Counted from the first letter of the stretch, positions 15,939-58,373 are shown. The stretch: 64,000 nt of DNA from an uncultured virus (IMG/VR IMGVR_UViG_3300020171_000002) (IMGVR_UViG_3300020171_000002), one strand, 5' to 3'. The notes: a model not told the origin generated them from the letters alone. Made by a program: numbers and translations.

Positions 15939-16073
15939 ACTGAATTCTACCAATAATACACCTATAAAGTTATCTACCAATAATATACCATTAAAAACGC
16001 CCTAAATCGCCTAAAACCTGCCTCTAACAGCCTTCTAAAACCAATAAAATGAACATTTTATTTTTTATTCAAA

Positions 16074-18170
16074 TTAATCGTCTGAAGAAACAATTTTCAA
16101 GAATAATTTCAATTGTTCCAGATCTTCAATCTCTTTAAACCTTAGAGGCAATCCAGCTTCTTTTAGTTGTTCTCCTTTTTCACGTGCTGTCTCAGAATCT
16201 AATGCTTCTTTCATTTCCTGAATCTTTTTGTGGTAATCTTCAACAGTTTCTAATCCTTCAAAATTTGCCTTTTTAGCTTCAGTAAATTTCTGAGCTTGTT
16301 CTTGACGTACTGTTTCCTCTTGTTTCTTTTTCTTATCTAATTCTTTTTTCGTTAGTGGCTTTGTATAAGTTCCTTTTGCGCCTTGTTCAAAAGCACTAAT
16401 GTAATCACGTGCAGTCATGGGAACACGTTCTGGCATATCTTTGAAACGACTTCCTGCATCTACAAATCCATTGGGGCGAAAATAAATGTATCGTGTAGTT
16501 GATTCTAACGAATTATCTTTTACGTTTCTTTCGATATAACAAGAGGCGATAATATCTGCTTTATCTGTGAATAATGCATCATAATCAAATTCGAGATTAG
16601 AAGTTAATTGTTGATAACTTTCTTCCTGTCCCTTTTCCTTAATGTCACGAACCTTCGTATGTCCAACGAAAAACCAAGTATAACCTGCGTTTTCAACTTC
16701 CTTGATTTTGTCATTAATCAATTTACGAAGCATTTTCTTTCCTGCTCCATATCCACCTAAAGCAGCATTGATAGAAGTAGCTTTTTCGCCTTTTCGTTGA
16801 TAATGAATTTTCAACACCTTTTCTTCTGCGATAGCAATTAGTTCATCAACAGTATCAATTGCAATAATCTTGAATTCATTATCTGCTTTATTCAATACTA
16901 AGTCATCAACAATATCACAAAAATCTTCCCATGTTTGAGCTTCCATAGCATACAAATTATCTAATGCTTTGAAACCAGTTTCATTACCTGGAGCAATCAT
17001 TAATCCATATTTTGGATCTCCATAATATTCAACAATTAAATCTCGAAACAGTGTAGAATTGTGTGTAACAATAAATTCATCTGTAAGATATAATTCAGAT
17101 TCATCATCTACTTTAATACAGACACATTCTTCGTCTCCAACATAAGAAATATCAGAAATGAAACGAGTCAAATTAGGATTATGATTGTGAAACTTCGGTA
17201 GATGTTTTTTTGATGTAACTGGAATAAAATCGTTGGCTCTAATAACCATATAAAACGATTCTTTTCCTATCCTATGATCTTCGTGAATTGAAGCAAGTCC
17301 TCCTAAAGATTGAACCAGCCATTTTATATCTTCTGCTAACTGATAAGATTTTGTTGAATATCTAATTCCACCAGTTTCACTTACATGACCATCTGTATCC
17401 ATTAATCCTTGTAATAATTTTAATCTAATATCATATGAATTCTGTAAATATATTGTTGGAATAAATTTATCTGGAGATTTTAAACCTAATAGACCTAATT
17501 CATTTAAAATAGTTCTAATTGGATTTCGATATTCTCCTTCTGGTTTTTTAATTACATAGGCACAATTATTTTCAGAACTTCTTTTAAATCCACATCCATA
17601 TTTTTCAAAAACAATTTCCTCAATTTTTTCTAAAACATCTTCTTCGGTATTAGAAAATCCAACAACTTTGTTGCAAATGTAACCATCTCCTAATAATAAT
17701 CCTAATAAATAAGGATCTAGTGGAATTTCTTGTTCATCAAATTCGACAGAAGCCGCAATTGGAATTTCAAATTTTGGATGACGATAACCATTTTTATCTA
17801 AAGAAAAATAATCTTCTTTGATTTGATTCAAGGTTAAAGTTCTAGCAAATCCTTTTCCTAGAATCTTCATCTTATGAGTTCTTACTGTCCATAAGTGTTC
17901 ATCGGAACATCGAGTTTTACTTCCATCAGAGAATGTAACTTCATAAACAGGTTTTGTTCCTTGTGGAAAAATCCCGATTATTTTAGTTTTGCTTCCATCT
18001 ACTGTAAAAACAGTATCTCCAACTTGCAAACTCCCAATTGCAACTTCTCCATCGGGAGTTTGAACTGATGAATATAAGGGTTGGGCTTTACCTACCTTTT
18101 TAGTTCCACGTAAATAATGTCGAAAACTTTCTAATGCAACCTTTGGCTCATTTAAAACATATTTCATCAA
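16074..18170 (-). CDS. AAA_24/Sak4-like P-loop ATPase (YorG-like) interrupted by an intein
   Basis: Spliced Walker A GTKKVGK|ST, Walker B IAIDTVD, GYGAG, AGSRF. Confidence 0.8.
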   Translation of the reverse strand: MMKYVLNEPKVALESFRHYLRGTKKVGKAQPLYSSVQTPDGEVAIGSLQVGDTVFTVDGSKTKIIGIFPQGTKPVYEVTFSDGSKTRCSDEHLWTVRTHKMKILGKGFARTLTLNQIKEDYFSLDKNGYRHPKFEIPIAASVEFDEQEIPLDPYLLGLLLGDGYICNKVVGFSNTEEDVLEKIEEIVFEKYGCGFKRSSENNCAYVIKKPEGEYRNPIRTILNELGLLGLKSPDKFIPTIYLQNSYDIRLKLLQGLMDTDGHVSETGGIRYSTKSYQLAEDIKWLVQSLGGLASIHEDHRIGKESFYMVIRANDFIPVTSKKHLPKFHNHNPNLTRFISDISYVGDEECVCIKVDDESELYLTDEFIVTHNSTLFRDLIVEYYGDPKYGLMIAPGNETGFKALDNLYAMEAQTWEDFCDIVDDLVLNKADNEFKIIAIDTVDELIAIAEEKVLKIHYQRKGEKATSINAALGGYGAGKKMLRKLINDKIKEVENAGYTWFFVGHTKVRDIKEKGQEESYQQLTSNLEFDYDALFTDKADIIASCYIERNVKDNSLESTTRYIYFRPNGFVDAGSRFKDMPERVPMTARDYISAFEQGAKGTYTKPLTKKELDKKKKQEETVRQEQAQKFTEAKKANFEGLETVEDYHKKIQEMKEALDSETAREKGEQLKEAGLPLRFKEIEDLEQLKLFLKIVSSDD
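17058..18086 (-). mobile_element. Class 3 intein (343 aa) with LAGLIDADG homing endonuclease
   Basis: Starts AQPLYS, ends FIVTHN before Ser; EHLW, CVCIKVD; LLGLLLGDG and LQGLMDTDG. Confidence 0.9.
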
Positions 18171-18177
18171 TCACTCC

Positions 18178-18393
18178 TTAGTCTTCAAAATCATAGTTTT
18201 CTAAAATATCCCGAACAGCATTACGAATATCTGAAGGATCATAATGTAGCTTTCTTAAAAGTTCAGCAAAAGTTTCTGTAATCATTTGAATATCTTCAAT
18301 TTCAGTATCCGGTAAATTTTTTCTGTCTAACTTTACTGTTACATTGCTGAGTTCATCAACTGCACTCATCTTTACGGTTTTCAATTCTCTCAT
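18178..18393 (-). CDS. Hypothetical protein
   Basis: ORF with AGGAG RBS. Confidence 0.6.
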   Translation of the reverse strand: MRELKTVKMSAVDELSNVTVKLDRKNLPDTEIEDIQMITETFAELLRKLHYDPSDIRNAVRDILENYDFED

Positions 18394-18412
18394 AAAATCT
18401 CCTGTTTTATTT

Positions 18413-18440
18413 TAGGTGGAATATATTTCAATTCCACCTA
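18413..18440. terminator. Hairpin / terminator
   Basis: TAGGTGGAAT / ATTCCACCTA 10-bp inverted repeat. Confidence 0.6.
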
Positions 18441-18453
18441 TTTTTAATAATAA

Positions 18454-19506
18454 TTACCAGCCAGTTTCTTCCTCATCTTCGATAGGAGTAGTGTCACCCC
18501 ATTCGGTAGTTCCAGTAGTAGAAGTATTCTGTGTTTTGAACCCTTCTTTTTCTGATTGTGCTTTCTTCATTGCTTGAAGTGCGTTATCCATTTTGGCTTC
18601 ACTATAATCTTCACGATTCATAGATTTGGGATCTGCACCTGTAATAACAAATAATTTTTTATAAGGGGAACGAACAGATTCCATAGTATTACTTGAACCC
18701 CAAACATCTTCAGATGCAACTTCTTCTTTATTGCGTTCAGTTTCCAAATTGCCCCATGTTTTAATGAATGTATAGGGTTTCAATGTTTTGAAATTCTTTC
18801 CCAATGCAGAATCTCGAATGAAGAATTCAGATTGTTCAATGGAGTTATAATTTACAATACTTCCATGAACATTTGCGCCAAGAATTTCCTCACCATCTTT
18901 CACCATTTCCATATCCATAAAGACAAATGTTTGAGTAAAATCTGATTGAACTTCAAAATCTTCTTCTTCAAAATCAACATCTTTACATAAGGAAATTTGG
19001 TTAGGAACAAGTTTAACACTTCGTTGTAGTTCACCATTATTGTTGTTGAAACTAGAATATTCTAATTTCCCACGAACAAATACTGACATTCCATCTTTTA
19101 AGTGTTCGTTGATATATCCACAGGCATCAAAAGGAACAAGATTTTTTTTATCGTTTACATCATTCCCTTTTTCGTCTTTGGTTTTTTCAAGACCTAAGTT
19201 CATTCCGATTAAACGATATCCTTCTTTTCGGAAAGAATTACGAGATTTCCAATCCTGACTAATCGTTTTCTTATCGTCTTTTGAGTAGAAATATACTTTT
19301 TCTTGAGTCATTCCATTGATCGATAAATAATGAACCCAATCCTTTGAAACCTGAACACCGAAATTGATCATGCGAAATGGTCTACCATTTTTATCGTTCT
19401 TTTCCTGATAAAAAGTTGGTTTTGCCACTCCAGTAATCACACCCTTTAAGGCAAATGATCCATCGGTTTGTTCTAAATCACCAAAACTTTCGTGCGTTTT
19501 TGCCAT
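18454..19506 (-). CDS. Probable ssDNA-binding protein
   Basis: OB-like VFVRGKLEY, acidic tail ending in W, position in replication module. Confidence 0.55.
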   Translation of the reverse strand: MAKTHESFGDLEQTDGSFALKGVITGVAKPTFYQEKNDKNGRPFRMINFGVQVSKDWVHYLSINGMTQEKVYFYSKDDKKTISQDWKSRNSFRKEGYRLIGMNLGLEKTKDEKGNDVNDKKNLVPFDACGYINEHLKDGMSVFVRGKLEYSSFNNNNGELQRSVKLVPNQISLCKDVDFEEEDFEVQSDFTQTFVFMDMEMVKDGEEILGANVHGSIVNYNSIEQSEFFIRDSALGKNFKTLKPYTFIKTWGNLETERNKEEVASEDVWGSSNTMESVRSPYKKLFVITGADPKSMNREDYSEAKMDNALQAMKKAQSEKEGFKTQNTSTTGTTEWGDTTPIEDEEETGW

Positions 19507-19594
19507 GCAATTTCTCCTTTAATTTAATAAAATTTTTAATAATAAGTAAACTTAATAAAACAATAATTTTATTTATTATGTCAAATCATCCTCC

Positions 19595-23838: not shown

Positions 23839-24144
23839 TTAATCCTCCAAATCTTCGTTAAAATTTTTAAATTTAATTAACATGTATAGTCCTAGTTTTT
23901 GTAAAAGATTTTCTAAAATCCCAAATGTAATATTTTCACAATCACCATCTTCTATCTTTTTTAATTTCCTCAATGGAATTTTATATTTTTTAGCAAATCC
24001 TTTTTGAGTTAATTTTTGATTTTTTCTAGCACGATAAACTGCAATTGATATATCTACATGATAATATATTTTCTTATATTCAACATTAAATTCTGGATCT
24101 TTTAATGCTTCTTTAAGTGCTTCTTCGTGTGAAATTAATTTCAT
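23839..24144 (-). CDS. XRE-family HTH protein (antitoxin-like)
   Basis: ARKNQKLTQKGFA..IEDG. Confidence 0.7.
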   Translation of the reverse strand: MKLISHEEALKEALKDPEFNVEYKKIYYHVDISIAVYRARKNQKLTQKGFAKKYKIPLRKLKKIEDGDCENITFGILENLLQKLGLYMLIKFKNFNEDLED

Positions 24145-24171
24145 ATTATCCCTTTAAATAAAACCTAGATT

Positions 24172-24474
24172 TTATTCCTGATCTTTCAAATATTTTTCAC
24201 GAATAAACCCAATCATAGCTTCACCAGCCATTTTCAACCAGGGAAATGAGACATCCTTATTCAGACTCCAATTGATGAATTTGTCATGCATCCAATTAAA
24301 GGCTCTTTCTTCTTGTGTAAGACCTTCCCAAACCAGACTACGTTCTTTCCAGGTATCACCCCAACGTTCATTGTCTTTATAAATTTGATTTTCTAATTCT
24401 ATAAAAAATTCAGGCAAATATTCTGGAAGAGACTTATTCAATATTTCAAAATTTTTATTGTCAGACATTTTCAA
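24172..24474 (-). CDS. Hypothetical protein
   Basis: ORF in operon. Confidence 0.55.
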   Translation of the reverse strand: MKMSDNKNFEILNKSLPEYLPEFFIELENQIYKDNERWGDTWKERSLVWEGLTQEERAFNWMHDKFINWSLNKDVSFPWLKMAGEAMIGFIREKYLKDQE

Positions 24475-24810: not shown

Positions 24811-25701
24811 TTAAGATAAAATAGATTGATTTCTCATTGCTTCTGATACACGATTTTTATGTATGTGAGCATAAATTCTTTGAGTTGTTTGAATATCAGA
24901 ATGACCTAAACTTTCCTGAGCAGTTTTCATATTTTCACCATTACTCAATAAATTTGTTGCAAAAGTATGTCTGGTAGAATGGACGTGCAGTTCTTCAATT
25001 CTTTCTTTTGGAAATCCAGCACGTTCTAAAATAGAGTTGAATTTATATCTAATTCCTTCACCAGAAAACTTTTTTCCCCAATTAGACACGAATAAATATT
25101 CATTATCGGGATGTTTTTTGATTCTTTGCTTTAAGTATTTGACTAAATACACTAAAACATCATCTGGAATATAAATATCTCTTGTTTTACCACGTTTTAC
25201 AATTACATTATGAATCGTATATCCATCTAATTGATCTAATTTTATGTTGATCAATTCTGTTCTTCTCAATCCAGTTGTAAAATAAATTCCAAACATTGCA
25301 AATTCTTCATTGGTTTTACAATTTTGAAAAAAACTTTTTACCTCTTCTTCGCTAAAGAAAGTCCTATTGATTTCATTTGCTTTTAAGTTTTTTACTTTAA
25401 CCAAAGGAGATTTTTCAATTTTTTCTTCACCGACTAACCAGTTAAAAAAAACTTTTAAAAACAAGAAATAAGTATTGATTGAATTATGAGAAAGTCCCTG
25501 GTTTTTTAGATGTTGTTGATATTCCCTTCCTTTTAACGCTGAAATATAAAATAAATCTTCATTAGATTGAATATTTAAAAAGTCGAAAAATCTATCAATA
25601 GCACTCAGATAACTCTGAATTGTTTTTTCATCTTTATCTAAAGACAAAACCAATGAATATTCTTTGACAAAATTTAAGTGATTATATTTTGATGTATACA
25701 T
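24811..25701 (-). CDS. XerC/D-like tyrosine recombinase
   Basis: SAM-like N-domain; catalytic R (TGLRRTE), K, HSTRH, LGHS, Y (TQRIY) all present. Confidence 0.9.
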   Translation of the reverse strand: MYTSKYNHLNFVKEYSLVLSLDKDEKTIQSYLSAIDRFFDFLNIQSNEDLFYISALKGREYQQHLKNQGLSHNSINTYFLFLKVFFNWLVGEEKIEKSPLVKVKNLKANEINRTFFSEEEVKSFFQNCKTNEEFAMFGIYFTTGLRRTELINIKLDQLDGYTIHNVIVKRGKTRDIYIPDDVLVYLVKYLKQRIKKHPDNEYLFVSNWGKKFSGEGIRYKFNSILERAGFPKERIEELHVHSTRHTFATNLLSNGENMKTAQESLGHSDIQTTQRIYAHIHKNRVSEAMRNQSILS

Positions 25702-44598: not shown

Positions 44599-44601
44599 TT
44601 T

Positions 44602-44823: not shown

Positions 44824-44852
44824 AATTTTCTCCTAATAAAATCATCGTTTTA

Positions 44853-45950: not shown

Positions 45951-46177
45951 TACAATAAAATTTCCGTTTTATCAGGTAATGAATTTTCAATTTCAATATT
46001 ACTAATTGAGGCATTCCATCTTACAGTCTCTCCATCATCATCTTGAAACTCTTGAGGAAGTCCCATAATACAATCTCCTCTCCATTCTAACCTAATTAAT
46101 TGTAAATATTCAATCAACTGATCGATTGTCATTTCGCTGTTATCATCATCTTTTTTATCATAAAATATAATTCTCAT
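45947..46177 (-). CDS. Hypothetical protein
   Basis: ORF in operon. Confidence 0.5.
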   Translation of the reverse strand: MRIIFYDKKDDDNSEMTIDQLIEYLQLIRLEWRGDCIMGLPQEFQDDDGETVRWNASISNIEIENSLPDKTEILLY

Positions 46178-46470: not shown

Positions 46471-46490
46471 TTTTTCTATTTTCCTTTCTG

Positions 46491-47276: not shown

Positions 47277-47405
47277 TCTATTTTACCTTTCTGTTATTTT
47301 ACTTTTTCTTCATTCCACTAATTATCATTCCAAACAACATCAATAAAAACGCTCCAAGCACACTTGTCATAAATTATAATCTCCTTTTCTAATAAAAAAT
47401 ACATT

Positions 47406-47948: not shown

Positions 47949-48130
47949 TGTTTTTTCCTAATAAAATGTCTATTTTATTTTGTTATTTATTTTGTTATTG
48001 CTGTTATTTTTAAATTCTTCTTTTGTTTTTTTAATCATTCTTTGATATGTCCACAATCCAGGTCTTTCTTTTTTTATTCTATCTTTCATAAAGAAACGTA
48101 CATAAATATTTGGATGTTCTTCAAGTTTCA

Positions 48131-48358
48131 TTATTTCAATTCACCAGTTATTATATCATAATTTTCGATATTCATTACATATCGATTTTTTCTAACAGGA
48201 TAAGAATAATCAGGAATCATCAACAAATAACCTTCTTTTATAGCCTTTCTAAGCAATTTTCTATCCTTAAGTGTTATTTGTCCTATATCTGTTATACCCT
48301 CGTTAAAAGCCATTAAAACAATCTTTGGTTGGGTTTCTATGGTTAGATTTTTAGTCAT
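48131..48358 (-). CDS. Hypothetical protein
   Basis: ORF with RBS. Confidence 0.5.
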   Translation of the reverse strand: MTKNLTIETQPKIVLMAFNEGITDIGQITLKDRKLLRKAIKEGYLLMIPDYSYPVRKNRYVMNIENYDIITGELK

Positions 48359-48429
48359 ACTTATTTCCTCATTCTAATAAAATTTATCTTTTATTATTTG
48401 TTTCCAATAAAAATATCATTTTATTGTAT

Positions 48430-48738
48430 TTAAAATTCCTTGAATGTATCATCAACAAATCCAATTTCCAATAATTTAACTTTCATTTCTTCTTTAGTTA
48501 AACTCTTGTTATTGTTTTCAGCAAGCACTTTCAAAAAATCTTGTCCACATTGATATAAAGCCAACCAGGAATCTTCAAAAGCCTCAAGCTTAGGAATTAG
48601 ATTACTACAATGTAAATCATACCACTTAATACTAAAATCTGCTTGAATTTCTGTTTCTGCATTCCAATATTCAATCCATAGTTCATTCCTAGAAGGGGAT
48701 TCTTTCCATCTTAGTTCAGCATCCACAAAACTCCACAT
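48430..48738 (-). CDS. Hypothetical protein
   Basis: ORF with RBS. Confidence 0.55.
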   Translation of the reverse strand: MWSFVDAELRWKESPSRNELWIEYWNAETEIQADFSIKWYDLHCSNLIPKLEAFEDSWLALYQCGQDFLKVLAENNNKSLTKEEMKVKLLEIGFVDDTFKEF

Positions 48739-48782
48739 GTTATTTATCCTTTCTGTTGTTTTCTAATTATACAATAAAACTT

Positions 48783-49202
48783 TTATTTTATTAGGTCTTC
48801 TTGTTCATATGTAAAAACGCCATTTTCATCAAAATTATCTGATATTTCAAACCCTTCAGGACTTCCTAATAATTCTAATTCTTTAAAAAGTTTTTCATAA
48901 TCAAGAGTCTGAATATTCATTCTCAGTGGACATTTACTCCACTTATCAAAACAATCAATATTGTCTGCTGTGATATGACCATTCAGACTTCTGTAACTTT
49001 GTTTATTAGGCGTACAAAACCCTCCATTAATTCCCATTCCTGTAAATCTCCAAAATACAAAATCTATTTTATTGGTATTTCTTATCGATTTTTTTAAAAT
49101 TTTATATTCATAAACGATTTTCTTTTCTACTTTATATCCACGTTGTTTTAATTCTTTCGCTAATTTTTTATAATTTCCAGGATGTCTTTTTCTGTTATTC
49201 AT
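48783..49202 (-). CDS. Hypothetical protein
   Basis: ORF in operon. Confidence 0.55.
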   Translation of the reverse strand: MNNRKRHPGNYKKLAKELKQRGYKVEKKIVYEYKILKKSIRNTNKIDFVFWRFTGMGINGGFCTPNKQSYRSLNGHITADNIDCFDKWSKCPLRMNIQTLDYEKLFKELELLGSPEGFEISDNFDENGVFTYEQEDLIK

Positions 49203-49208
49203 TTTTTA

Positions 49209-49514
49209 TTATCCTTCCTGTACAATATCATAATCAGTAAATCTTGGTTCAAAAAAGTCTTTTAATTTTCCTGTTTTTCTATCCATATGATTCATTATTC
49301 CAAAGATGTCATGATAGAAATTCGAGTCATCAGCATATAGCCAATCTTCTAATCTTAATTTATCATTTTCATAATGGGTTGCTTGAATATCCATTATTAA
49401 ATCAATGTGAGAAAATTTTGGATAAATTGATTGTACTTTTTCAATGGCACGTTTAGTAATTTTTCCTATTAATAATTCATCTTCTAATGGTAAATCCCAA
49501 TTAATTTTTGTCAT
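49209..49514 (-). CDS. Hypothetical phage protein
   Basis: MDIQATH..NFYHDIFGI.NH.DR.TG.L..F.PRF. Confidence 0.6.
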   Translation of the reverse strand: MTKINWDLPLEDELLIGKITKRAIEKVQSIYPKFSHIDLIMDIQATHYENDKLRLEDWLYADDSNFYHDIFGIMNHMDRKTGKLKDFFEPRFTDYDIVQEG

Positions 49515-49562
49515 TTTTATAATCCTTTCTGTTATATCAATTATAATAAAATAAACTTTTTA

Positions 49563-49988
49563 TTAGTATTCTAAATCTTCACCGTTTTCATTTTCATAAG
49601 AAGTATCTATTTCAATATCTCCAAAATGAAATTTTCCATTTTCTTCCCATACCTGGAATGATCTTTTAAAATTATGTTTCACTCCACCATTCATACTATC
49701 ACCATCACAACATTCCATTGACATAATTCCAATTAATCCAGCATCCACACCATACTCATTACCCTTGTTGTCGTAATATTCACCATCACCATATTTTGTT
49801 TTATAAGCAAAGCATAATTGATCATTATATTTAAATAATCCACTTTGCCAATTGGAAGGAAATTTTTCTAATTCTAAACCAAAACAACCTGTACTATCAA
49901 TCAAATCGCTCCAATTTTCATCTTTTACTGCATAGCAAGGATCACCGATCCAATAATCACCAGGCTTTAAAAAATGTTTTTCAGTCAT
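49563..49988 (-). CDS. DUF4241-like hypothetical protein
   Basis: YWIGDPCY, T.YGDGEY, VDAGLIG. Confidence 0.6.
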   Translation of the reverse strand: MTEKHFLKPGDYWIGDPCYAVKDENWSDLIDSTGCFGLELEKFPSNWQSGLFKYNDQLCFAYKTKYGDGEYYDNKGNEYGVDAGLIGIMSMECCDGDSMNGGVKHNFKRSFQVWEENGKFHFGDIEIDTSYENENGEDLEY

Positions 49989-49989
49989 T

Positions 49990-50376
49990 TTATTCCTCCT
50001 CATTATAAAATTTGTTATTATCTAAAATTTCTTGATTGATTTCATTAATGGCATTTAGAATATCACCTTCTGTTTTTATTTCTACACCATATTCGCCTAA
50101 TTCATATAAATCTGTTTGACCACCTTCTAAGTTATCCCAATCAATAACGGTAAAATCAGTGTTCTCAGAAGTTGACCAAATATCCTGTACTAAACCACCA
50201 TTTACATCAATTAAAACTTGTTCTTTTTTTCTATTGATTGTTATTTCAACATTGGTATTACATCCAAATAAAATATCCATTCTGTTATTTAATTTATTCC
50301 AATCTGTTATGATTATTCCTGATCCAATTAAACTTCTCAATAAATCACTTACTTTAGTTTTCGGATTACTTGTCAT
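49990..50376 (-). CDS. Hypothetical protein
   Basis: ORF with RBS. Confidence 0.55.
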   Translation of the reverse strand: MTSNPKTKVSDLLRSLIGSGIIITDWNKLNNRMDILFGCNTNVEITINRKKEQVLIDVNGGLVQDIWSTSENTDFTVIDWDNLEGGQTDLYELGEYGVEIKTEGDILNAINEINQEILDNNKFYNEEE

Positions 50377-50394
50377 TTTTATTTTTCCTTTCTG

Positions 50395-50658
50395 TTAGTT
50401 ATAAAAATTAGCACAATTTTGATGATCAAAGAGTATAATCAAAGTGTTATCTTCTGATTTATATTCCCATCCAACAAGTTCAAGATTGCTGTCGATAAGT
50501 TCATTAACAAAATGATAGTTATTCATAGAAAAATAAAATTCAATATTTTTCATTATATAAAGATCAGAAATTTTATCTTCAATGGTACTAAAATTTATTA
50601 TTGTTTGTTTATCGTTCATATATTTTATTGGCGTATATCTCAAGTTGATTACAGTCAT
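50395..50658 (-). CDS. Hypothetical protein
   Basis: ORF downstream of a promoter. Confidence 0.5.
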   Translation of the reverse strand: MTVINLRYTPIKYMNDKQTIINFSTIEDKISDLYIMKNIEFYFSMNNYHFVNELIDSNLELVGWEYKSEDNTLIILFDHQNCANFYN

Positions 50659-50683
50659 TATTTTGTTATCTCCTTTATTATTG

Positions 50684-50711
50684 ATTATAGCGACTAATTT
50701 TCAAATTACAA
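50684..50711 (-). promoter_or_regulatory. Promoter TTGTAA-N16-TATAAT
   Basis: Member of the 16-nt-spacer family. Confidence 0.6.
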
Positions 50712-50730
50712 TAGGCAATTTTCTATTTAA

Positions 50731-50946
50731 TTAATTCCAATATTTTAATGCTTGAATTTCATTTATTTTAATTATAGTTATTGATTCTTCCATTTCATCA
50801 GCTATCCATAAAAATCCTTCTTTATCTTTTGTAAAAAGATTTATAAAATTATTGAAAGCATCAGAAGTTATTCTTCTTTCTATTTGAATTCCACCTTTCA
50901 TATAAAAAATACATTTAATTCTCTTTTCATTTTTGTTATTCATCAT
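50731..50946 (-). CDS. Hypothetical protein
   Basis: ORF with RBS. Confidence 0.5.
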   Translation of the reverse strand: MMNNKNEKRIKCIFYMKGGIQIERRITSDAFNNFINLFTKDKEGFLWIADEMEESITIIKINEIQALKYWN

Positions 50947-50986
50947 ATATCCTTTCTAATAAAATAGATTTTTTATTGGTTGACTG

Positions 50987-51547
50987 TTATTCAATAATTT
51001 CATAATTTCTTTTTTCTTCCTGGAAAATATTCTTAAGGATATCGTCCCTTCCTTCCTGTGAAATAAAGTTTAATTTATATCCATCAATAATGAAACAAAT
51101 TGTCTTTACAGTAAAACTTCCTTTTCTATAAAGATAATTATTTAAATTTCTTAATGTTTTTTGTTTGTCTAATTTTGTAGTGTCAATTACTCTTGAATGT
51201 TTTACTGTCATTTCATAATTTTCATCAATGGATATTTCAACCATTTCATTCTTATCATGCAATTTAAGGGATTCTAACAGTTGTTTTACTGGTATAATGG
51301 CATAAAACGCATCATGACCATTGAAAATCTTTGAATTAGCTGTTAAATAGGTTTTAAAATTTTTGTTATCCTTATCATCAACGAATAATCCATCAGTTTT
51401 ATATAAACAAATTCTTTTGTTGGTTTCTTCCAATGGACTGTACTCAAATAATAAATAATTTTTTACTGAATCCTGTCTACCATGAGACTTGATTTCTTTT
51501 TCTAATTTTGTTATTGCATTTATTAATTGAAAGTTATGAATATACAT
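50987..51547 (-). CDS. Hypothetical protein
   Basis: 186 aa ORF. Confidence 0.55.
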   Translation of the reverse strand: MYIHNFQLINAITKLEKEIKSHGRQDSVKNYLLFEYSPLEETNKRICLYKTDGLFVDDKDNKNFKTYLTANSKIFNGHDAFYAIIPVKQLLESLKLHDKNEMVEISIDENYEMTVKHSRVIDTTKLDKQKTLRNLNNYLYRKGSFTVKTICFIIDGYKLNFISQEGRDDILKNIFQEEKRNYEIIE

Positions 51548-51564
51548 TTTCCTATTCCTTTCTG

Positions 51565-51747
51565 TTATCTTTTCTGATATCCCAATGATCTTAATTCTTT
51601 AATTTTGTTATTCAATTTTTTTATATTTGAAAAAATATAAATTCCGAAAAATGGACTACCATCTTTATGCGTTTGAATTCCATCATGAAAATTTAAGAGA
51701 TATTTTACTTTTCCAACATTATTTTGAATATAAAATGTTTTATCCAT
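51565..51747 (-). CDS. Hypothetical protein
   Basis: ORF with GAGG RBS. Confidence 0.55.
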   Translation of the reverse strand: MDKTFYIQNNVGKVKYLLNFHDGIQTHKDGSPFFGIYIFSNIKKLNNKIKELRSLGYQKR

Positions 51748-52294
51748 TGTTTACCTCTTTTACAAATTTAATATCTGATTGTATATGTTTAAATGTATGA
51801 TCGGATCGTATAGGCATAACTGTTGCAACATAAGTTCCAGAAGGCATATTATTAGAACGTAATACAATTTGAATGGGTCTATCGTTAGTAATTAAATTAA
51901 TATCAACTTGATCAAATCCATTAATGGCACTACACAAAAATGTAGGATTTATACTGATAAAAGTTTGAGCATCTGTTATTGGTTTATCATAATCAGTAAG
52001 AATAACAGAAATATCAGGAAAAGTAACATCATCAATCTTTATAAGTGCAATAGATTTTTTTGTTATAGTAACAGGTTGCCAAATTCCATCAGGAAGTTCG
52101 GCATGCAAAGGTTGATTGAGTTTAGCAACTACTAATTTAAATCCATCGGTAGCTTCAAAAACTGTTCCATTATTTTTAATATGAATACCAGTCCAGGATT
52201 CTCTCATTTTATCTGTAGACACGTTATTTTTCAGCCATTTAAGAAGATTATACATCTCATTTGTTACATCCAAAGTTTGAAATATTGTAGCCAT
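51740..52294 (-). CDS. Truncated beta-clamp (DnaN)-like protein
   Basis: STDKMRESWTGIH, ATDGFKL, FPD, INPTFL, VMPIR. Confidence 0.65.
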   Translation of the reverse strand: MATIFQTLDVTNEMYNLLKWLKNNVSTDKMRESWTGIHIKNNGTVFEATDGFKLVVAKLNQPLHAELPDGIWQPVTITKKSIALIKIDDVTFPDISVILTDYDKPITDAQTFISINPTFLCSAINGFDQVDINLITNDRPIQIVLRSNNMPSGTYVATVMPIRSDHTFKHIQSDIKFVKEVNNG

Positions 52295-52336
52295 TTTTTT
52301 TAATTCCTTTCTGTTATTTCTAATAAAACAATCTTT

Positions 52337-52678
52337 TTATTGGTTTGATAAATCCCATAAATCAATATAATCAGATAATACTAATTTTTTACAATCTTCA
52401 GGTAAATCATCAAACTTAATCTTTTTACCTAAATGAGAATAAGCTGGTCTATCAATGGGATAATCAGAATAACCATATTGACCAAATCCTTGAGGATGAT
52501 AAGGATTACTATTCATTGATAAATCTATAAAATCACCATTGGTTTTATGAGTATATCTACCAGTGAAAACTACAGTATATCTATCTATTGTTAAACCTTG
52601 ATTATCATAACATCTAATATATCTTGGTTTTCCTTCAGGTAATAAACTGTCATATCTTTCTTGTTGTTTTTTATTCAT
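52337..52678 (-). CDS. Hypothetical phage protein
   Basis: YDN.G.T.DRYTVV..HLGKKI.F.DLP. Confidence 0.6.
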   Translation of the reverse strand: MNKKQQERYDSLLPEGKPRYIRCYDNQGLTIDRYTVVFTGRYTHKTNGDFIDLSMNSNPYHPQGFGQYGYSDYPIDRPAYSHLGKKIKFDDLPEDCKKLVLSDYIDLWDLSNQ

Positions 52679-52728
52679 TTTAGTGTCTCCTATTTTTATT
52701 TCTGTTATTGTTATTTATTTCTACTTTT

Positions 52729-52756
52729 ATTATAACAAGTTTTTTGTTATTTACAA
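52729..52756 (-). promoter_or_regulatory. Promoter TTGTAA-N16-TATAAT
   Basis: Member of the 16-nt-spacer family. Confidence 0.6.
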
Positions 52757-52767
52757 TAGCCAATTTT

Positions 52768-53025
52768 TTATTTTCTTACTACATATGGAGAATGACCATA
52801 TAATAATTTATAAACTGTTTCAAATCCTCTGTTATTGGTTGGTATAAATAAGAATCGATTAGATTCTTTTTTATCCATTTCACCATATACATCGCTTGAA
52901 AATCTATTAAATCCTCCAATATATTTATATTCATCGATAAACTTATAGTAAGATTTAATACTACTCATTTTTACTGTTATTTTTCTTCTGTTATCATCTT
53001 CGCCATAAAAAAATACTTTGATCAT
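52768..53025 (-). CDS. Hypothetical protein
   Basis: ORF; start moved to the ATG after GAGG. Confidence 0.5.
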   Translation of the reverse strand: MIKVFFYGEDDNRRKITVKMSSIKSYYKFIDEYKYIGGFNRFSSDVYGEMDKKESNRFLFIPTNNRGFETVYKLLYGHSPYVVRK

Positions 53026-53039
53026 TTTGTTATTCCTCT

Positions 53040-53399
53040 CTATCTTACTTCCCATTGAAAATCATCATAACCAGGTAATTTATTAATACAAATATCCCTA
53101 ATATCATCTAAAATCTTTCTTGCGTTTGATCTTTTCCATGTGTTATGTTCACAGGATTGATAATCAAGACAATTGATTGCCTTTAATACTTGAATAGGAT
53201 TAATGTTTCTTACCTGTTCAAAAATATATTTATATGGTTGATTAGATTCATTATATCGATAATTAACACTTTTAAAATTTTCATCAACTAAGGTTTGACC
53301 AGTTTTATTTAAAAATTCTTTAGTGAATAACGGATTATCGTTATATAAAACTGTTACGATATAATCAATATGTTTTTTGTTTACAATAAATGCGCTCAT
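53040..53399 (-). CDS. Hypothetical phage protein
   Basis: MSAFIV..HI..EN..SVNYRY..CLDYQSCE; AGGAG RBS. Confidence 0.6.
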   Translation of the reverse strand: MSAFIVNKKHIDYIVTVLYNDNPLFTKEFLNKTGQTLVDENFKSVNYRYNESNQPYKYIFEQVRNINPIQVLKAINCLDYQSCEHNTWKRSNARKILDDIRDICINKLPGYDDFQWEVR

Positions 53400-53442
53400 T
53401 TTAAAAATCTCCTTTTTGTTTTCTGTTATTGTTATTTTAATT

Positions 53443-53688
53443 TTAATATCTTTTTCCACATTCAGTTAATTTAATTTCATAAGCTTTTTTTCCTAATTCA
53501 AAATATATAAATCCTGTTTCTTTATTTTCAGTCCAGGTAACAAATTGATTTTTAATTTTGCTTTTTGGAAAAGTAGGATATTTATTATCTTCTAAATCAG
53601 CTAAACCAGCAATTTCATCATATAACATGTCAATTAAATCTTTTGGCGTTATTTTGTTGATTCCTTTTTTCAATTCTTTATTGGTCAT
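53443..53688 (-). CDS. Hypothetical protein
   Basis: ORF with RBS. Confidence 0.5.
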   Translation of the reverse strand: MTNKELKKGINKITPKDLIDMLYDEIAGLADLEDNKYPTFPKSKIKNQFVTWTENKETGFIYFELGKKAYEIKLTECGKRY

Positions 53689-53743
53689 TCTGTTATTCCT
53701 TTTTTCCTGATAAAATTAACCTTTTATTGGTTTTATGTTTCTG

Positions 53744-53965
53744 TTATGATAGAATTGATTTAATTTCTTTTCTGTGTAGGATTACACTAACAAGAATATC
53801 TGTTTCATCAATGGTATGTTCTACTTCAAAAAGTTTTTCTCCATTATGATCAAAAATATCTCTTACAATTCCTTTTCTTATATCGCCATAAAATTTTCCT
53901 TCAGGTTTATTAAAATATCGATATAATATTTCACTTCCAATTTTTAAGGTTTTTCTTGTTTTCAT
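53744..53965 (-). CDS. Hypothetical protein
   Basis: ORF with RBS. Confidence 0.5.
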   Translation of the reverse strand: MKTRKTLKIGSEILYRYFNKPEGKFYGDIRKGIVRDIFDHNGEKLFEVEHTIDETDILVSVILHRKEIKSILS

Positions 53966-53982
53966 TCTGTTATTATCCTTTT

Positions 53983-54315
53983 CTAATTTGCTTGACCGTA
54001 TCTTAATATTTGAGATTTTACAGCATGATCAAAAACTTCTATTCTCGATCCAACATTATCTACATTAAACCAATTATGAATTTTTTCATAACATTCTTTT
54101 TTACTATCAACATATGAAATAAATCCCATACCAGTATCAAATTCTGATATTTGCCATGCAGGATTTTTGGCATTATTTTTTATTGACAACCAGGTTTTAT
54201 GTACTAAAAATTTATATCCCATATATTCATAAAGATAAGCAGGAATTTTTTCCAAATTAGAAATATCACCATTTTTTTTGTTATGAATTCTTATATTGTA
54301 ATAATTTGTTTTCAT
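53983..54315 (-). CDS. Hypothetical protein
   Basis: ORF with RBS. Confidence 0.5.
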   Translation of the reverse strand: MKTNYYNIRIHNKKNGDISNLEKIPAYLYEYMGYKFLVHKTWLSIKNNAKNPAWQISEFDTGMGFISYVDSKKECYEKIHNWFNVDNVGSRIEVFDHAVKSQILRYGQAN

Positions 54316-54608
54316 TCTGTTATTTCCTTTTCTAATTTATTTAATTTTTCAATAGCATGATTTAATTTATTTAAAGATTTTTTAATTCTTTCTAATTCTT
54401 TTTTATATGGATAATAATTTCCCAATTGTTTTAATGATTTTTCTAATTTATCAATTTTTTCGATATATAGATTTTTCAATTCTTCAGGTTTATTAATTTT
54501 CCAAATATCTTTTGGCGTTTCTATTCCTCGAATAATATTATCATCTTTATCTAAGTAAAAATTCTGATATTTTTTGTTATAAAATTCTAATTCCCATTTG
54601 TCTAACAT
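54312..54608 (-). CDS. Hypothetical protein
   Basis: ORF with RBS. Confidence 0.5.
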   Translation of the reverse strand: MLDKWELEFYNKKYQNFYLDKDDNIIRGIETPKDIWKINKPEELKNLYIEKIDKLEKSLKQLGNYYPYKKELERIKKSLNKLNHAIEKLNKLEKEITE

Positions 54609-54661
54609 TTTATTTTTCCTTTTTTCTGATAAAATTTTGATTTTATTTTTTTGATCTGTTA

Positions 54662-55045
54662 TTATATTTCAATTTCTTGTCGTAAAGCATAATCAAAAAT
54701 TTCATATAAATAATCTTTAATTTCTCTCTTGTTTCTTCCAGTAATCCATAAAGAAAAATCATTATATAAATCAGGAATAACAGTTAATTTATAATCAATC
54801 CATCCATCATACATACCGCAATCATCCATAAAGTGAAAAGAAAAATTGAAAATTAATTTGTTAGGTTTAGATTTTTCAAAATCTAATTCAATTCCTGCAT
54901 CGATTCCACTTCCTGAAGGAAGTTGATCAACCAGTTTATTTAATTTTTCTTCATGCTTATCTTTCCAGGTAATATTATTTGTTTCAATACATCTTTGGTA
55001 TGCTTGCAATGTTCCTGCAATATGTTTATATAATTTGTTATTCAT
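54662..55045 (-). CDS. Hypothetical phage protein
   Basis: LPSGSGID..FHFMD..G.YDGW. Confidence 0.6.
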   Translation of the reverse strand: MNNKLYKHIAGTLQAYQRCIETNNITWKDKHEEKLNKLVDQLPSGSGIDAGIELDFEKSKPNKLIFNFSFHFMDDCGMYDGWIDYKLTVIPDLYNDFSLWITGRNKREIKDYLYEIFDYALRQEIEI

Positions 55046-55094
55046 TTTTTAATCTCCTATTTTTTTTATTTAAATATTTTTTATTTCTATACTG

Positions 55095-55122
55095 ATTATA
55101 GCAATTTATAAATAAATGTCAA
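55095..55122 (-). promoter_or_regulatory. Promoter TTGACA-N16-TATAAT
   Basis: Consensus hexamers. Confidence 0.75.
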
Positions 55123-55323
55123 TAGATTTTGATACAATGATACAATCGTTAACAATCTGTTAACATTCCAATTCCAGGTAATAATTATTAAATAAAATAC
55201 TGTTTTCATTGGTTTTTTATTGTTCATTTTTAGCCATTTTCAGCGTTTTTAAATTATGATCTGTTATTTTATATCTGTTATTATGTAAAGTGTTTTATTG
55301 TGCTTTAAATTGTGCTTAAAATA

Positions 55324-55362
55324 GAATATGGCATATTTTTTTTGATTTTATATGCCATATTC
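55324..55362. terminator. Hairpin / terminator
   Basis: GAATATGGCATAT / ATATGCCATATTC 13-bp inverted repeat. Confidence 0.6.
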
Positions 55363-55403
55363 GAGGGAGGAGAAGAAAATGTTTAATTATTTTTTGTTAT
55401 TTT

Positions 55404-55781
55404 TTAACATGCTAATCTTGTTATTTTGTCAATGTCATTAACTTGAATATTATTATATTTAATACAATCAGGACAAATTGAATCAACATTAAAGCCAACA
55501 TGATGATCAAATTTTAATAATATTGTATTATGTAACATTGAATTATTATAATAATTTGTTTTAAAATTATATGTCAAAAATAATCTTACAATTTGATTAG
55601 ATTCTGTAGGTTGCGCAGAATAATTATTCCAGGAATCTTTAACAAATTTTAAACCTGTATTTTCTTCAATGTGATTTAATGCTATTGGATTAAAATTATT
55701 TGTTAAAATTTTAATTTTTGGCAAATTGATTGTATATTGTTTATTGTTTCCATTATATAAATTTAATTTTTCTTCAGCCAT
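55404..55781 (-). CDS. Hypothetical protein
   Basis: ORF with GGAG RBS. Confidence 0.55.
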   Translation of the reverse strand: MAEEKLNLYNGNNKQYTINLPKIKILTNNFNPIALNHIEENTGLKFVKDSWNNYSAQPTESNQIVRLFLTYNFKTNYYNNSMLHNTILLKFDHHVGFNVDSICPDCIKYNNIQVNDIDKITRLAC

Positions 55782-55798
55782 TTTATTTTCTCCAATTG

Positions 55799-55984
55799 TT
55801 ATTTTATTCTATCATTTTGTTTTTTAATATTTTTAATTAATTCCAATGCTTCCCTTAAATCAGGATGATTTATGTTTCCAATTCCCAAATTTCTAATCAA
55901 CCAATTAAAATCATTTTTTCTTAATTCTGGAATATTCATAGTATTTAATATTTCTTTTAATCTTAATTCTTCCCATGTTTCCAT
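55799..55984 (-). CDS. Hypothetical protein
   Basis: ORF with RBS. Confidence 0.5.
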   Translation of the reverse strand: METWEELRLKEILNTMNIPELRKNDFNWLIRNLGIGNINHPDLREALELIKNIKKQNDRIK

Positions 55985-55996
55985 TTTGTTTATTCC

Positions 55997-56028
55997 TTAT
56001 CTGTTATCTGTTATCTGTTATCTGTTAT
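55997..56028. repeat. Tandem repeat (TTATCTG) x4.5
   Basis: Read from sequence. Confidence 0.9.
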
Positions 56029-56481
56029 GCTTAGGAAAATTATATATATTCTTTTTCCAGGTATTTTGTTTTTTAATTTCATATTGTATTATTTTATTTT
56101 TAATAATTTCAATAATTATAATATAAAAAATACCAATAAATACCATTATAGCCACAAAAAATCCTGAAGTATCCATTTTTAATTTTCCTTTTCTTGTAAT
56201 AATAAGATATAAGTTAATAATTTTTTATTTTCTTTTTCCTTGCGATTCTTTTTTAATTCTTTCGTTTCTTTTTTTGTTTTCATTTTTTTAATCCTTTTTT
56301 ATTTTAGATTATATTATTTTTAATCAACAATTGCAATATAAAAAAATAACCATTTATAAGCTGGAGGATTTGATTTTAATGTTAATCTTTTCGGTAAAAT
56401 ATAATTATAAATTTTGTTGTTGTGCATCCTATGTATACCAATTTTAATTTTTTTCATGATTTATTATTCCTTATTTTCTAA

Positions 56482-56682
56482 TTATGGTTTGTTATTATCA
56501 TTATTAATTTTAAGATTATTTAAGCATATTGGACAAATATCATCATATTTTTTAACGTCATTGTATGATTGTTTAAAATAAGCTTGATTTAATTCTTTTT
56601 CAGATAATCTACAAAATGATTTAAAGGTTTTTTGATCTTCCAGGTGGATTATAATATTAATTTTATTATTGTTATCATTCAT
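56482..56682 (-). CDS. Hypothetical protein
   Basis: ORF with RBS. Confidence 0.45.
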   Translation of the reverse strand: MNDNNNKINIIIHLEDQKTFKSFCRLSEKELNQAYFKQSYNDVKKYDDICPICLNNLKINNDNNKP

Positions 56683-56696
56683 TTTTTAATTCCTTT

Positions 56697-56930
56697 TTAA
56701 TTGTAAAATCCTACTTCATTAATATTAAGATAATAACAAGCTTGCAAATTATTATCAGTTATAAAATTTTCTTTTCCTTCAATTTCAATTTGAAATTTTA
56801 TAAAGTGATTAATTTTAACTTTTTTGTTATCAATAGTATATAAATTTTCATTGTCAATATAGTCAAGTACATTATTATTATATGGATTAAAATTAATTTG
56901 TTGAAATGTTTTTTTCTTATTTTCTATCAT
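56697..56930 (-). CDS. Hypothetical protein
   Basis: ORF with RBS. Confidence 0.45.
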   Translation of the reverse strand: MIENKKKTFQQINFNPYNNNVLDYIDNENLYTIDNKKVKINHFIKFQIEIEGKENFITDNNLQACYYLNINEVGFYN

Positions 56931-56985
56931 GATATAATTCCTTTTTTTTGATCTGTTATTTGTTTATTTATTTTATTTTCTGATC

Positions 56986-57023
56986 ATTGGCATTATAAAA
57001 ATTATTATAATCATAATGCCAAT
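56986..57023. terminator. Hairpin / terminator
   Basis: ATTGGCATTAT / ATAATGCCAAT 11-bp inverted repeat. Confidence 0.55.
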
Positions 57024-57046
57024 AATCAACTAATAAAATATAATTT

Positions 57047-57649
57047 TTATTGTCTCATGTTATATTGTTCTTTTATTTCATTTTCAAATTTTCCATAATC
57101 AACCAGGAATTTATTAACATACTTCCCAAAATATCTATTATTAACTTTCATAATGCAAGCGTGAATTTTAAAATCTTTGGCTTCCATAATTAGAAAATGT
57201 TTTCCGTTAAATTTCATAGGCGGTAAGCATTCAAGCTGATCATAATAATTCGATTCTGAAATTTCAACCCATAAATTTATTTTATTGTTAAAATTATAAT
57301 CCAGGCTATACTCTCCAGTATATAACCATAAATTGTTAAAATCACGTTGTAATTGATTTTTAAGATGATCTTCCATTGTTAAAGGTTTTTCAGGAAGTAT
57401 TAAAAATTCCTGAAAATCAATTAAAAATGGTTTTTGTGATTCTAAAAATTCCTTCATGTCATTTTCATTTTTAAAAAATTCATTCCAAAAATTAAAACCA
57501 GAATTTTTATATTTAAAATATAACATATGAGTTTTAATTTCATTATTGATCATGATATATTTTTTATCAAGTATAAACATAAATTCAATAGTAGAATTTT
57601 TTGGCAATAAATCTTTATTTTTTAATTCCTGAATTGTTATTGTTTTCAT
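57047..57649 (-). CDS. Hypothetical protein
   Basis: 200 aa ORF; W.EISE..Y..LECLPP. Confidence 0.55.
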   Translation of the reverse strand: MKTITIQELKNKDLLPKNSTIEFMFILDKKYIMINNEIKTHMLYFKYKNSGFNFWNEFFKNENDMKEFLESQKPFLIDFQEFLILPEKPLTMEDHLKNQLQRDFNNLWLYTGEYSLDYNFNNKINLWVEISESNYYDQLECLPPMKFNGKHFLIMEAKDFKIHACIMKVNNRYFGKYVNKFLVDYGKFENEIKEQYNMRQ

Positions 57650-57695
57650 TTTGTTATTTTCCTTATTTGATCATTATTTTCTGTTATTAAAAATT

Positions 57696-57989
57696 TTATC
57701 GATTTTTAAAATAATTTTCTTCATACCAGGATGGATAAATTTCTTTATTTTTAATCTGCACAAAATAATTATTTTTGTTATAATATGGTTTTCTACCGCA
57801 GATATTAATATTTTTTTGATCTGTTCGATTCCTTGCGTTGTCTTCCACTATTCGAGCGTCTTTTAAGGATTCACATTCGAAAACAAGTTTATTAATTTTA
57901 TTTTCTGATCTTCCCCAATTACTCATAAATTTGTCAGTCATTGTTACCCAAAATTTAATTTTTTGTTCATTTGTTATTTGTTCAGTCAT
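57696..57989 (-). CDS. Hypothetical phage protein
   Basis: VTMTDKFMS.WG. Confidence 0.6.
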   Translation of the reverse strand: MTEQITNEQKIKFWVTMTDKFMSNWGRSENKINKLVFECESLKDARIVEDNARNRTDQKNINICGRKPYYNKNNYFVQIKNKEIYPSWYEENYFKNR

Positions 57990-58053
57990 TTTATTTTATC
58001 CTTTTTTTATTTTCTGTTATTTGAAAATTATTTTCTGTTATTTCTATAATTCC

Positions 58054-58081
58054 AGTATAGCGATTTTTTTTCAATTGTCAA
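58054..58081 (-). promoter_or_regulatory. Promoter TTGACA-N16-TATACT
   Basis: Member of the 16-nt-spacer family. Confidence 0.7.
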
Positions 58082-58123
58082 TAGATTTTGATACAATGAT
58101 ATAATTGTTAACAATTGGATTTT

Positions 58124-58315
58124 TTAATATCCTATATAGGGATTGCATCCTTTAATTTTTTCAGGTTTTTCCCTTATAATTGCATTTTTAGAATTTAAAT
58201 AAATTTTATCAATTTCAAATTCTTTAATACAATTTTCCAACATGCCAGTATATAAAATAATAAAATTTTCCCAATTATTTTTATATACAATTTCATATAT
58301 TTTTTGATTTTCCAT
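58124..58315 (-). CDS. Hypothetical protein
   Basis: ORF with RBS. Confidence 0.45.
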   Translation of the reverse strand: MENQKIYEIVYKNNWENFIILYTGMLENCIKEFEIDKIYLNSKNAIIREKPEKIKGCNPYIGY

Positions 58316-58373
58316 TTTTTAATTTTCCTTATAAAATTCTAATTTTATTTGTTCAATCTGTTATTAAATAATT

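Follow-up and report, generated by a model that had tools for sequence, protein, structure and literature searches.

A 20-bp palindrome, AATAAAA-N6-TTTTATT, recurs at gene boundaries in a 64,000-nt stretch of DNA from an uncultured virus (IMGVR_UViG_3300020171_000002). The whole stretch is termed the window, and site coordinates are counted from its first letter. The palindromes are very probably docking sites at which a two-fold symmetric pair of proteins binds double-stranded DNA. The interpretation that we favor, tentatively, is that the Xer-like tyrosine recombinase of the phage itself uses them as heterospecific core sites. Each arm of a palindrome would bind one recombinase monomer, and strands would be exchanged within an overlap region formed by the six central bases. 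A different, non-palindromic overlap at each site would prevent its reaction with the other sites of the same genome, which would delete or invert genes, and each site would recombine solely with its own counterpart on a sister genome or a co-infecting one. The outcome would be frequent, precise crossovers at gene boundaries that reassort gene blocks between related phages, or the joining or circularizing of genome copies, with the genes left undamaged.

The window contains 19 perfect copies of the palindrome compared to 0.05 expected from 100 dinucleotide shuffles, in which the largest value was 1, and 13 copies with one mismatch. An earlier note on this DNA had listed 17 perfect and 11 one-mismatch coordinates. 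Every one was recovered, and the shuffles bear out its estimate of less than one perfect copy by chance. Its statement that there is no clear copy in 1–16 kb was wrong; perfect copies are located at 2248 and 10030, both intragenic, and the one-mismatch copies absent from its list, at 6355 and 49054, are also both intragenic. Spacings from 0 to 20 were scanned in the window. N6 gave the 19 copies, any other spacing gave 0 to 2, and the reversed order TTTTATT-Nx-AATAAAA gave 0 to 2. The comparison of spacer lengths that the earlier note had proposed thus finds enrichment of N6 only, and its claim that all spacers differ holds. A relaxed core, ATRAAA-N6-TTTYAT, in which the outermost bases are freed and R or Y is permitted at position 4, identifies exactly 28 sites in the window.

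The palindrome is common to at least five diverged lineages of ~110–140 kb AT-rich phages, with 19 to 69 copies of the relaxed core per record. The core counts in six records were 28, 37, 69, 29, 50, and 19, and the other spacings from N2 to N12 gave 0 to 5. There are 27 perfect copies in G002, a 112 kb, 93%-complete relative of the window with siphovirus-type structural genes, 12 in G005 (138 kb), and 6 in G009 (131 kb), and the palindrome is also found in the fragments G006, G007, and G008. Two more distant records have 9 and 6 copies, and there are 0 copies of the core in G004, a 207-kb phage with a 45% identical RNA ligase. The motif-bearing lineages range from 27% to 39% G+C, and the DNA polymerases of the window and G009 are ~30% identical; the arm sequence is identical in all lineages. 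Across the lineages, the sites are located in early, replication, and late operons and on both strands.

The genes of 1–59 kb of the window are on the minus strand, and 27 of the 32 sites with ≤1 mismatch are intergenic or at a gene edge. The order on the sense strand is the upstream stop codon (often a TAA within the left arm), the palindrome, an AGGAG-like ribosome-binding site, and the start codon. As the earlier note had described, the TAA stop lies within the left arm at 24157, 35119, 47391, 52322, and 57032, and TTTTATT runs directly into AGGAG at 35119, 35835, 40053, 43436, 44060, and 44835. The idea that the palindrome is a promoter was rejected because the ribosome-binding site directly adjoins it, which leaves no room for a leader, and no upstream element is conserved. 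The principal sites and the two encoded candidate binders are as follows.

2248..2267: perfect intragenic copy in an NT5C-like gene, where it encodes N-K-x-x-I-L-F; kept in G002 with a different spacer.
10030..10049: perfect intragenic copy in a RecJ-like gene; kept in G002, and G005 has an AATGAAA variant.
16043..16062: perfect site located 11 nt beyond the stop of gene 16074–18170; the sense-strand spacer, tgttca, is shared by the orthologous site at 54580 in G002.
19554..19573: perfect site, spacer ttattg, upstream of the SSB-like gene 18454–19506.
23839..24144, minus strand: small helix-turn-helix (HTH) protein of XRE type, 101 aa; the other candidate binder, with its only counterpart in the close relative G002.
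24157..24176: perfect site; contains the TAA stop of 24172–24474 and lies 12 nt before the start of the HTH gene.
24811..25701, minus strand: candidate binder, an Xer-like tyrosine recombinase of 296 aa with an intact catalytic R-K-H-R-H-Y set and a sigma-70-like promoter of its own.
31123..31142: one-mismatch site (AATAAAT) directly beyond the right end of the TnpB unit.
34059..35138: site pair consisting of 34059 (AATGAAA, spacer ttttag) and 35119 (perfect, spacer tgatgg).
35835..41187: sites 35835, 38763, 39430, 40053, and 41168.
43436..58349: densest stretch, in the early small-gene region, with 17 sites at 43436, 44060, 44835, 45954, 47391, 47960, 48376, 48406, 48773, 49545, 50958, 52322, 53709, 54628, 55191, 57032, and 58330.

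The variation within the arms points to recognition of duplex DNA. Among 147 intergenic sites with ≤1 mismatch across the lineages, internal arm variation is almost confined to position 4, and the changes at this position are mirror-symmetric (A to G on the left in 14, T to C on the right in 9). When the outer bases are freed, the position-4 pair of the intergenic sites is A-T in 132, A•C in 32, G•T in 25, and G-C in 2, and usually no more than one half-site of a pair is in the G form. The information content is about zero beyond 7 bp per arm, except for a weak C at position −2. A half-site of (A)ATRAAA with a gap of exactly 6 bp is well supported by these data, and mirror-symmetric variation is the signature of a symmetric dimer.

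The transcribed palindrome could also be read as a 7-bp A-U hairpin 5' of the ribosome-binding site that acts in termination, processing, stability, or translation, and the earlier note had listed a weak RNA hairpin among its alternatives. All intergenic sites are in the sense transcript directly before the Shine–Dalgarno sequence, and there is no excess of classical GC-rich terminators in 40–60 kb (3 found compared to 3.4 expected). The internal mismatches found within the window alone are all A to G in the 5' arm and would give G•U pairs in the transcript, but this idea was dropped since the A•C-forming variant TTTCATT, from other lineages, is as common as the G•U-forming variant (32 versus 25 intergenic sites). 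A paired RNA or single-stranded DNA would favor G-C and G•U, disfavor A•C, and tolerate G•U elsewhere, so the observed pattern contradicts a hairpin. The compensated G-C pair is rare, and change is tolerated at position 4 only, even though A to G at the other positions would also produce G•U. We saw no covariation between the arms that would keep pairing through compensatory or wobble changes, and no excess complementarity at the flanking or loop-closing positions. The hairpin is weak, with folding energies of −3.5 kcal/mol at 15 °C and −0.56 kcal/mol at 37 °C, and variants with TTTCATT fail to fold. A fixed stem with loops that vary over 27–39% G+C is the reverse of a structural RNA, and this pattern across diverged genomes, along with conserved copies inside genes, argues for duplex recognition. 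The pair counts and folding energies largely contradict an RNA-level function, which we consider very improbable.

The spacers were compared across 232 sites, some of them orthologous. The same spacer does not occur twice in one genome in either orientation (0 pairs), whereas two imperfect null models predict 7.0 identical pairs by column shuffles (P = 0.0005) and 6.1 by the between-genome rate (Fisher P = 0.007). Within-genome spacer pairs within one mismatch number 60 compared to 91–105 expected. Self-complementary spacers are absent (0/232) compared to 6.0 expected (P = 0.0025). The first spacer base prefers T and the last prefers A, yet their co-occurrence is avoided, and Watson–Crick pairing between the first and last bases was found 27 times compared to 44 expected. 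Seventeen site pairs have matching flanks in the window and G002, and 14 of these have identical spacers (84/84 bases); the spacers of the other three differ at 2, 5, and 2 positions. Spacer identity between the two genomes is 93/102 compared to 380/460 in the adjoining homologous 20-nt flanks (P = 0.035). Pairs with the same spacer total 18 and are collinear. One or both flanks are replaced in 10 of these 18 pairs; the sites outlast the genes around them. Two contigs from metagenome-assembled genome (MAG) bins contain close variants with one and two spacer substitutions, so spacer conservation is strong but not absolute. In being unique per genome, never palindromic, and conserved between orthologues, the spacers behave as the overlap regions of a recombinase do.

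The recombinase encoded at 24811–25701 aligns with XerA (5hxy) and XerC/D. The catalytic Arg, Lys, His, Arg, His, and Tyr residues are in place, in agreement with the earlier note, which had called the enzyme intact. Homologues are encoded by G002, G005, G009, and G008, and every fuller genome also has a second recombinase paralogue in the late region. The catalytic set is kept in 8 of 8 phage copies (5 early-type and 3 late-type). The recombinase is a core gene in every motif-bearing lineage with enough sequence and belongs to the approximately one dozen proteins common to the lineages. Its gene is located in the middle of the array with no promoter other than its own and no adjoining palindromic site. 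The earlier note had recognized the layout of a tyrosine-recombinase core site in the palindrome, and this part of its proposal fits and has gained support from the intact, conserved recombinase and the behavior of the spacers; the excision and insertion of single genes that it attached to this layout are unsupported.

Two other proteins were considered as binders. The HTH protein adjacent to site 24157 has a counterpart in G002 only. A family of small proteins (104–153 aa) with the core W-x-D-G-x-K...E-x-G...K-K-x-F-G was found in each of the five lineages and is mostly encoded close to the recombinase; G002 45719–46033 is an example, with counterparts in G005, G007, G008, and G009. Its sole family match is phrog_9910, of unknown function, and it matches no known fold family. 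This family was dropped as a candidate binder; neither the window nor the 12 kb preceding it encodes a member.

The window covers the early and replication genes of a large AT-rich phage. The replication genes encode ribonucleotide reductase, a RecD-like helicase, DNA polymerase, RecJ, and a primase and helicase. Several DNA methyltransferases, sugar-modification genes, TnpB, and the Xer-like recombinase are also present, followed by ~15 kb of small unknown genes. A divergent gap at 59010–59530 (18% G+C) separates the leftward early genes from a rightward block at 59530–62015. The gap has several sigma-70-like promoter matches and no palindrome with ≤1 mismatch, and it is probably the main early control region. 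Searches of phage databases turned up no close relative of the window, and the sole match was a 120-nt stretch of the RNA ligase gene, to jumbo phages. Window DNA is present in groundwater metagenomes, and there was no RNA run among the listed sequencing runs that carry it. We did not recognize a phage RNA polymerase in G002. A collection scan for the motif plus AGGA, used solely to pick contigs from the same sampling campaigns, returned 80 loci, nearly all of them lone matches in unrelated AT-rich contigs. A TnpB protein search revealed no host. It led to two 4-kb contigs in Patescibacteria and Deferribacterales bins, both of which are phage fragments. These bins contain 8 and 5 perfect sites, mostly with phage spacers, and there was no sign in the two bins that the motif is a host-wide signal.

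Gene turnover was examined by comparing gene adjacency between the window and G002. At site-bearing boundaries 13 adjacencies were broken and 4 kept, and at site-free boundaries 33 were broken and 24 kept; within 38–59 kb, the corresponding values were 10 broken and 3 kept, and 18 broken and 7 kept. The earlier note had proposed that gene gain and loss breakpoints might fall at the sites, and the comparison with G002 showed them no more common there than at other boundaries. It had also suggested searching for circular or site-to-site junctions. The contigs of four metagenome DNA runs were compared over window positions 38400–58399, and none was found in them; the joints that were seen had short sides and low-complexity sequence. 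In a single run, one replacement joint begins at the edge of site 40053; it was not used as evidence. Homology blocks often terminate at site edges. A 53-bp block around 52322 is conserved with different neighboring genes on both sides, and in 7 phage-derived contigs of two MAG bins, 4 of 14 contig ends are within 6 nt of a site. The insertion of gene 54312–54608 was mapped, and it relied on a repeat within the ribosome-binding region instead of the palindrome.

A number of these results, and others, weigh against assigning the palindromes to the recombinase. Gene-turnover breakpoints are not enriched at site boundaries, and clean site-to-site or allelic-exchange joints are missing from the contigs of the four runs. 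The intergenic gaps are so tight that any junction at a gene boundary must abut a site. The spacer statistics draw on partly orthologous sites and imperfect null models, and two of the spacer properties have other potential sources: uniqueness could partly reflect avoidance of 20-bp repeats usable by ordinary homologous recombination, and the absence of palindromic spacers could reflect avoidance of cruciforms cut by a phage RuvC-like resolvase. The conserved arms are ~7 bp, shorter than the 11-bp arms of Xer sites, and 30–70 sites per genome is, to our knowledge, without precedent for a recombinase. Homologues with 30–35% identity to the recombinase are found in motif-free contigs (L134/L135 and L140–L142), and neither the motif nor any other multi-copy N6 palindrome was detected near 24–35%-identity homologues in other viral contigs (6–21 kb loci). 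The occurrence of the enzyme in motif-free contigs with no alternative palindrome means that covariation of enzyme and site is not demonstrable, and the link between the two is, on sequence evidence, circumstantial.

A strong rival, possible although we hold it to be somewhat unlikely, is that the palindromes are stoperator-style operators at which a dimeric repressor or silencer, bound to intergenic palindromes genome-wide, blocks transcription. A small HTH protein could do this, as could a protein with the recombinase fold that only binds DNA, and the aim could be either to silence a prophage or to shut off early genes in a timed manner. Mirror-symmetric duplex half-sites with strict spacing are expected of a dimeric repressor, and the many copies in short intergenic spaces on both strands resemble the L5 stoperators and SPbeta MrpR/SPBRE. 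The presence of two genes of the integrase family in each genome suggests that the phages are temperate or live as plasmid prophages, and site 41168 overlaps the predicted start point of a strong promoter (TTGACT-16-TATAAT). It is the only one of six strong minus-strand promoters at a site, and the divergent control region at 59.0–59.5 kb is free of sites with ≤1 mismatch. We found no repressor that is conserved in all lineages, the HTH protein being confined to the window and G002. Phages L5, P1, and phiC31 tolerate many near-identical operator copies, and spacers that are unique, never palindromic, and conserved between orthologues are not predicted by an operator. The recombinase-site model predicts these three spacer properties as well as the 6-bp center, has an intact enzyme that is conserved, and is ranked slightly ahead; the operator alternative offered by the earlier note thus stays a serious rival but is not the favored reading. 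In the natural multi-site heterospecific system that would follow, the recombinase would act at 30–70 sites per genome, each addressed by its own 6-bp overlap, and only allelic copies would recombine, a possibility that we treat as doubtful. Such a system could give homology-independent crossovers between co-infecting relatives, a natural recombinase-mediated cassette exchange, and could equally circularize or concatenate circularly permuted genomes, whichever stretch is terminally redundant.

Two further explanations concern how genes move. The sites could be passive linkers like the PeSLs of T4-type phages, regulatory or neutral repeats whose short homology lets ordinary recombination shuffle gene modules. 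The identity islands at sites between replaced genes, of which the 53-bp block at 52322 is one, are in line with passive linkers. The shared 7 + 7 bp are split by unique spacers and too short for efficient homologous recombination, the repeat has no promoter (nothing upstream is conserved) and its stem is not a terminator, breakpoints are not enriched at the sites, and the 54312–54608 insertion used a different repeat, all of which make this explanation improbable. The integron-like cassettes proposed in the earlier note, in which the recombinase would move single units of a ribosome-binding site plus open reading frame (ORF) by recombining neighboring sites, would account for the many such units bounded by sites and for the intact recombinase. 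Sites 34059 and 35119 also invite this view. They are ~1 kb apart in the window with four or five small ORFs between them, and the same spacers (ttttag/tgatgg) are adjacent in G002, 33 nt apart at 38511 and 38544 and in the opposite order to the window; this region of the two genomes has nothing in common except both sites. A cassette mechanism needs cross-reacting sites, and the spacers look selected against that, since they are unique and similar ones are depleted within a genome. Recognition is at the duplex level with no attC-like structure, we found no attI or cassette-promoter platform beside the recombinase gene, gene gain and loss are not enriched at the sites, and neither circular nor site-to-site joints were present in the contigs. 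TnpB, the sole mobile gene seen in two places, has its left junction off any site. Single-gene cassette movement is accordingly the least probable of the explanations considered and is unsupported.

The TnpB gene (IS605 OrfB-type; window 31123–32383) is mobile within the phage family. An 85%-identical copy is present in two relatives (L124 and L125) in a leader that matches window 39454–39482. In both places the right end of the unit lies 8–11 nt before a palindromic site, which itself follows an A-run, and the left end is away from any site.

The sites share features with several known systems. In Xer sites, a 6-bp central region is flanked by inverted arms (PMC5357621). The likeness to Xer/dif and Cre/lox consists of two inverted arms, an asymmetric center of fixed length (6 bp as in dif, within the 6–8 bp of tyrosine-recombinase core sites), and an intact Xer-like enzyme encoded in the same genome. 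The differences are that there are 19–69 sites per record rather than one or two, that the arms are ~7 bp rather than 11–13 bp, and that the phage sites are spread over gene boundaries and not placed beside the enzyme gene or at a terminus. Engineered heterospecific lox and FRT sites for cassette exchange differ in the spacer only and react only with an identical partner. We know of no natural multi-site heterospecific system. Phage L5 has more than 20 stoperators, 13-mers located in promoters and short intergenic spaces (PMC9283540). Like the phage sites, those of L5 (bound by gp71; cluster A mycobacteriophages) are dozens of copies of a single short protein-binding motif, intergenic and genome-wide. 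The stoperators are asymmetric, follow the direction of transcription, and are each bound by a monomer, whereas the phage sites are palindromes with a site-specific 6-bp center. MrpR (YopR) of SPbeta is a recombinase-fold repressor that acts on the SPBRE element, a 15-bp motif, at 9 peaks (PMC10516654). There, as here, a tyrosine-recombinase-fold protein and a repeated intergenic element occur in a large phage, the binder here being only a candidate. MrpR has lost its catalytic residues; all are kept in the recombinase here, and the site copies are far more numerous.

The PeSLs are repeated promoter-plus-terminator cassettes that mediate module shuffling in T4-type phages (PMC2839356, PMC4122927). 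They are the nearest described case, being repeated intergenic motifs among small accessory early genes at the edges of swapped modules, but their structure is different throughout. They comprise a sigma-70 promoter and a real terminator stem-loop, and they recombine by homology and form mini-circles. The phage sites have no promoter, no stable stem, and no U-tract, and their spacers keep the copies from matching. Integron attC sites are imperfect palindromes of 57–141 nt with paired R''-L'' and L'-R' boxes that are recognized as folded single strands with extrahelical bases. The phage sites resemble them in forming a one-directional array, in lying at gene-unit 3' ends, and in the possibility of internal stop codons. 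They differ in being 20 bp with perfect arms and duplex-type symmetric variation, and they have no attC features.

Other elements were noticed in these genomes. A second motif, ATAACAG(A), noted at window 45265–58364, is strand-specific, with 38 copies on the minus strand versus 6 on the plus strand where 6.6 would be expected on either; the early small-gene region accounts for 37 of those 38. It is located in 5' leaders, beside or between the ribosome-binding site and the ATG, often as ATAACAGAAAGGA, and four tandem copies (56007–56034) precede the gene starting at 55984. G002 has the same bias (35 versus 7, all at 12.4–25.6 kb). A possible role of the motif is as a signal on early mRNAs that directs their processing or controls translation. 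Paired GC-rich palindromes, CCCC(C)-ATATAT/ACATAT-GGGG(G), ~25 nt apart, are found at G002 74257 and 86666, at 3389 in the head of G001 (L010), and at 6091 in G006. These pairs adjoin AT-rich sites of the late region, upstream of the endolysin gene and of the operon encoding RuvC and the second recombinase, and could serve in late control or form a second type of recombinase site. Window 16074–18170 encodes an AAA_24 (Sak4-like) protein of 698 aa with a LAGLIDADG domain at residues 249–310. The homologues in G005 and G009 are 357–370 aa, and the LAGLIDADG part is probably an intein insertion. An HNH endonuclease domain is fused to the N terminus of a family-2 glycosyltransferase at 27404–28687, and a free-standing HNH endonuclease is encoded at 8828–9355 between the DNA polymerase and RecJ genes; both are likely homing elements.

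Repeated protein-binding motifs between phage genes are already known from the stoperators, SPBRE, and the PeSLs. The distinctive property of the sites described here is the combination of fixed palindromic arms with a center that is different at each site yet conserved per site across relatives, a design by which mutually exclusive recombination sites are made in the laboratory. If the palindromes are silencer sites, they would constitute a new palindromic stoperator-like regulon in an uncultured groundwater phage family. If the recombinase acts at them, these phages would have a built-in mechanism for crossovers at gene boundaries that exchanges accessory blocks between diverged phages without breaking genes, and the sites would provide a ready-made set of orthogonal recombination sites.

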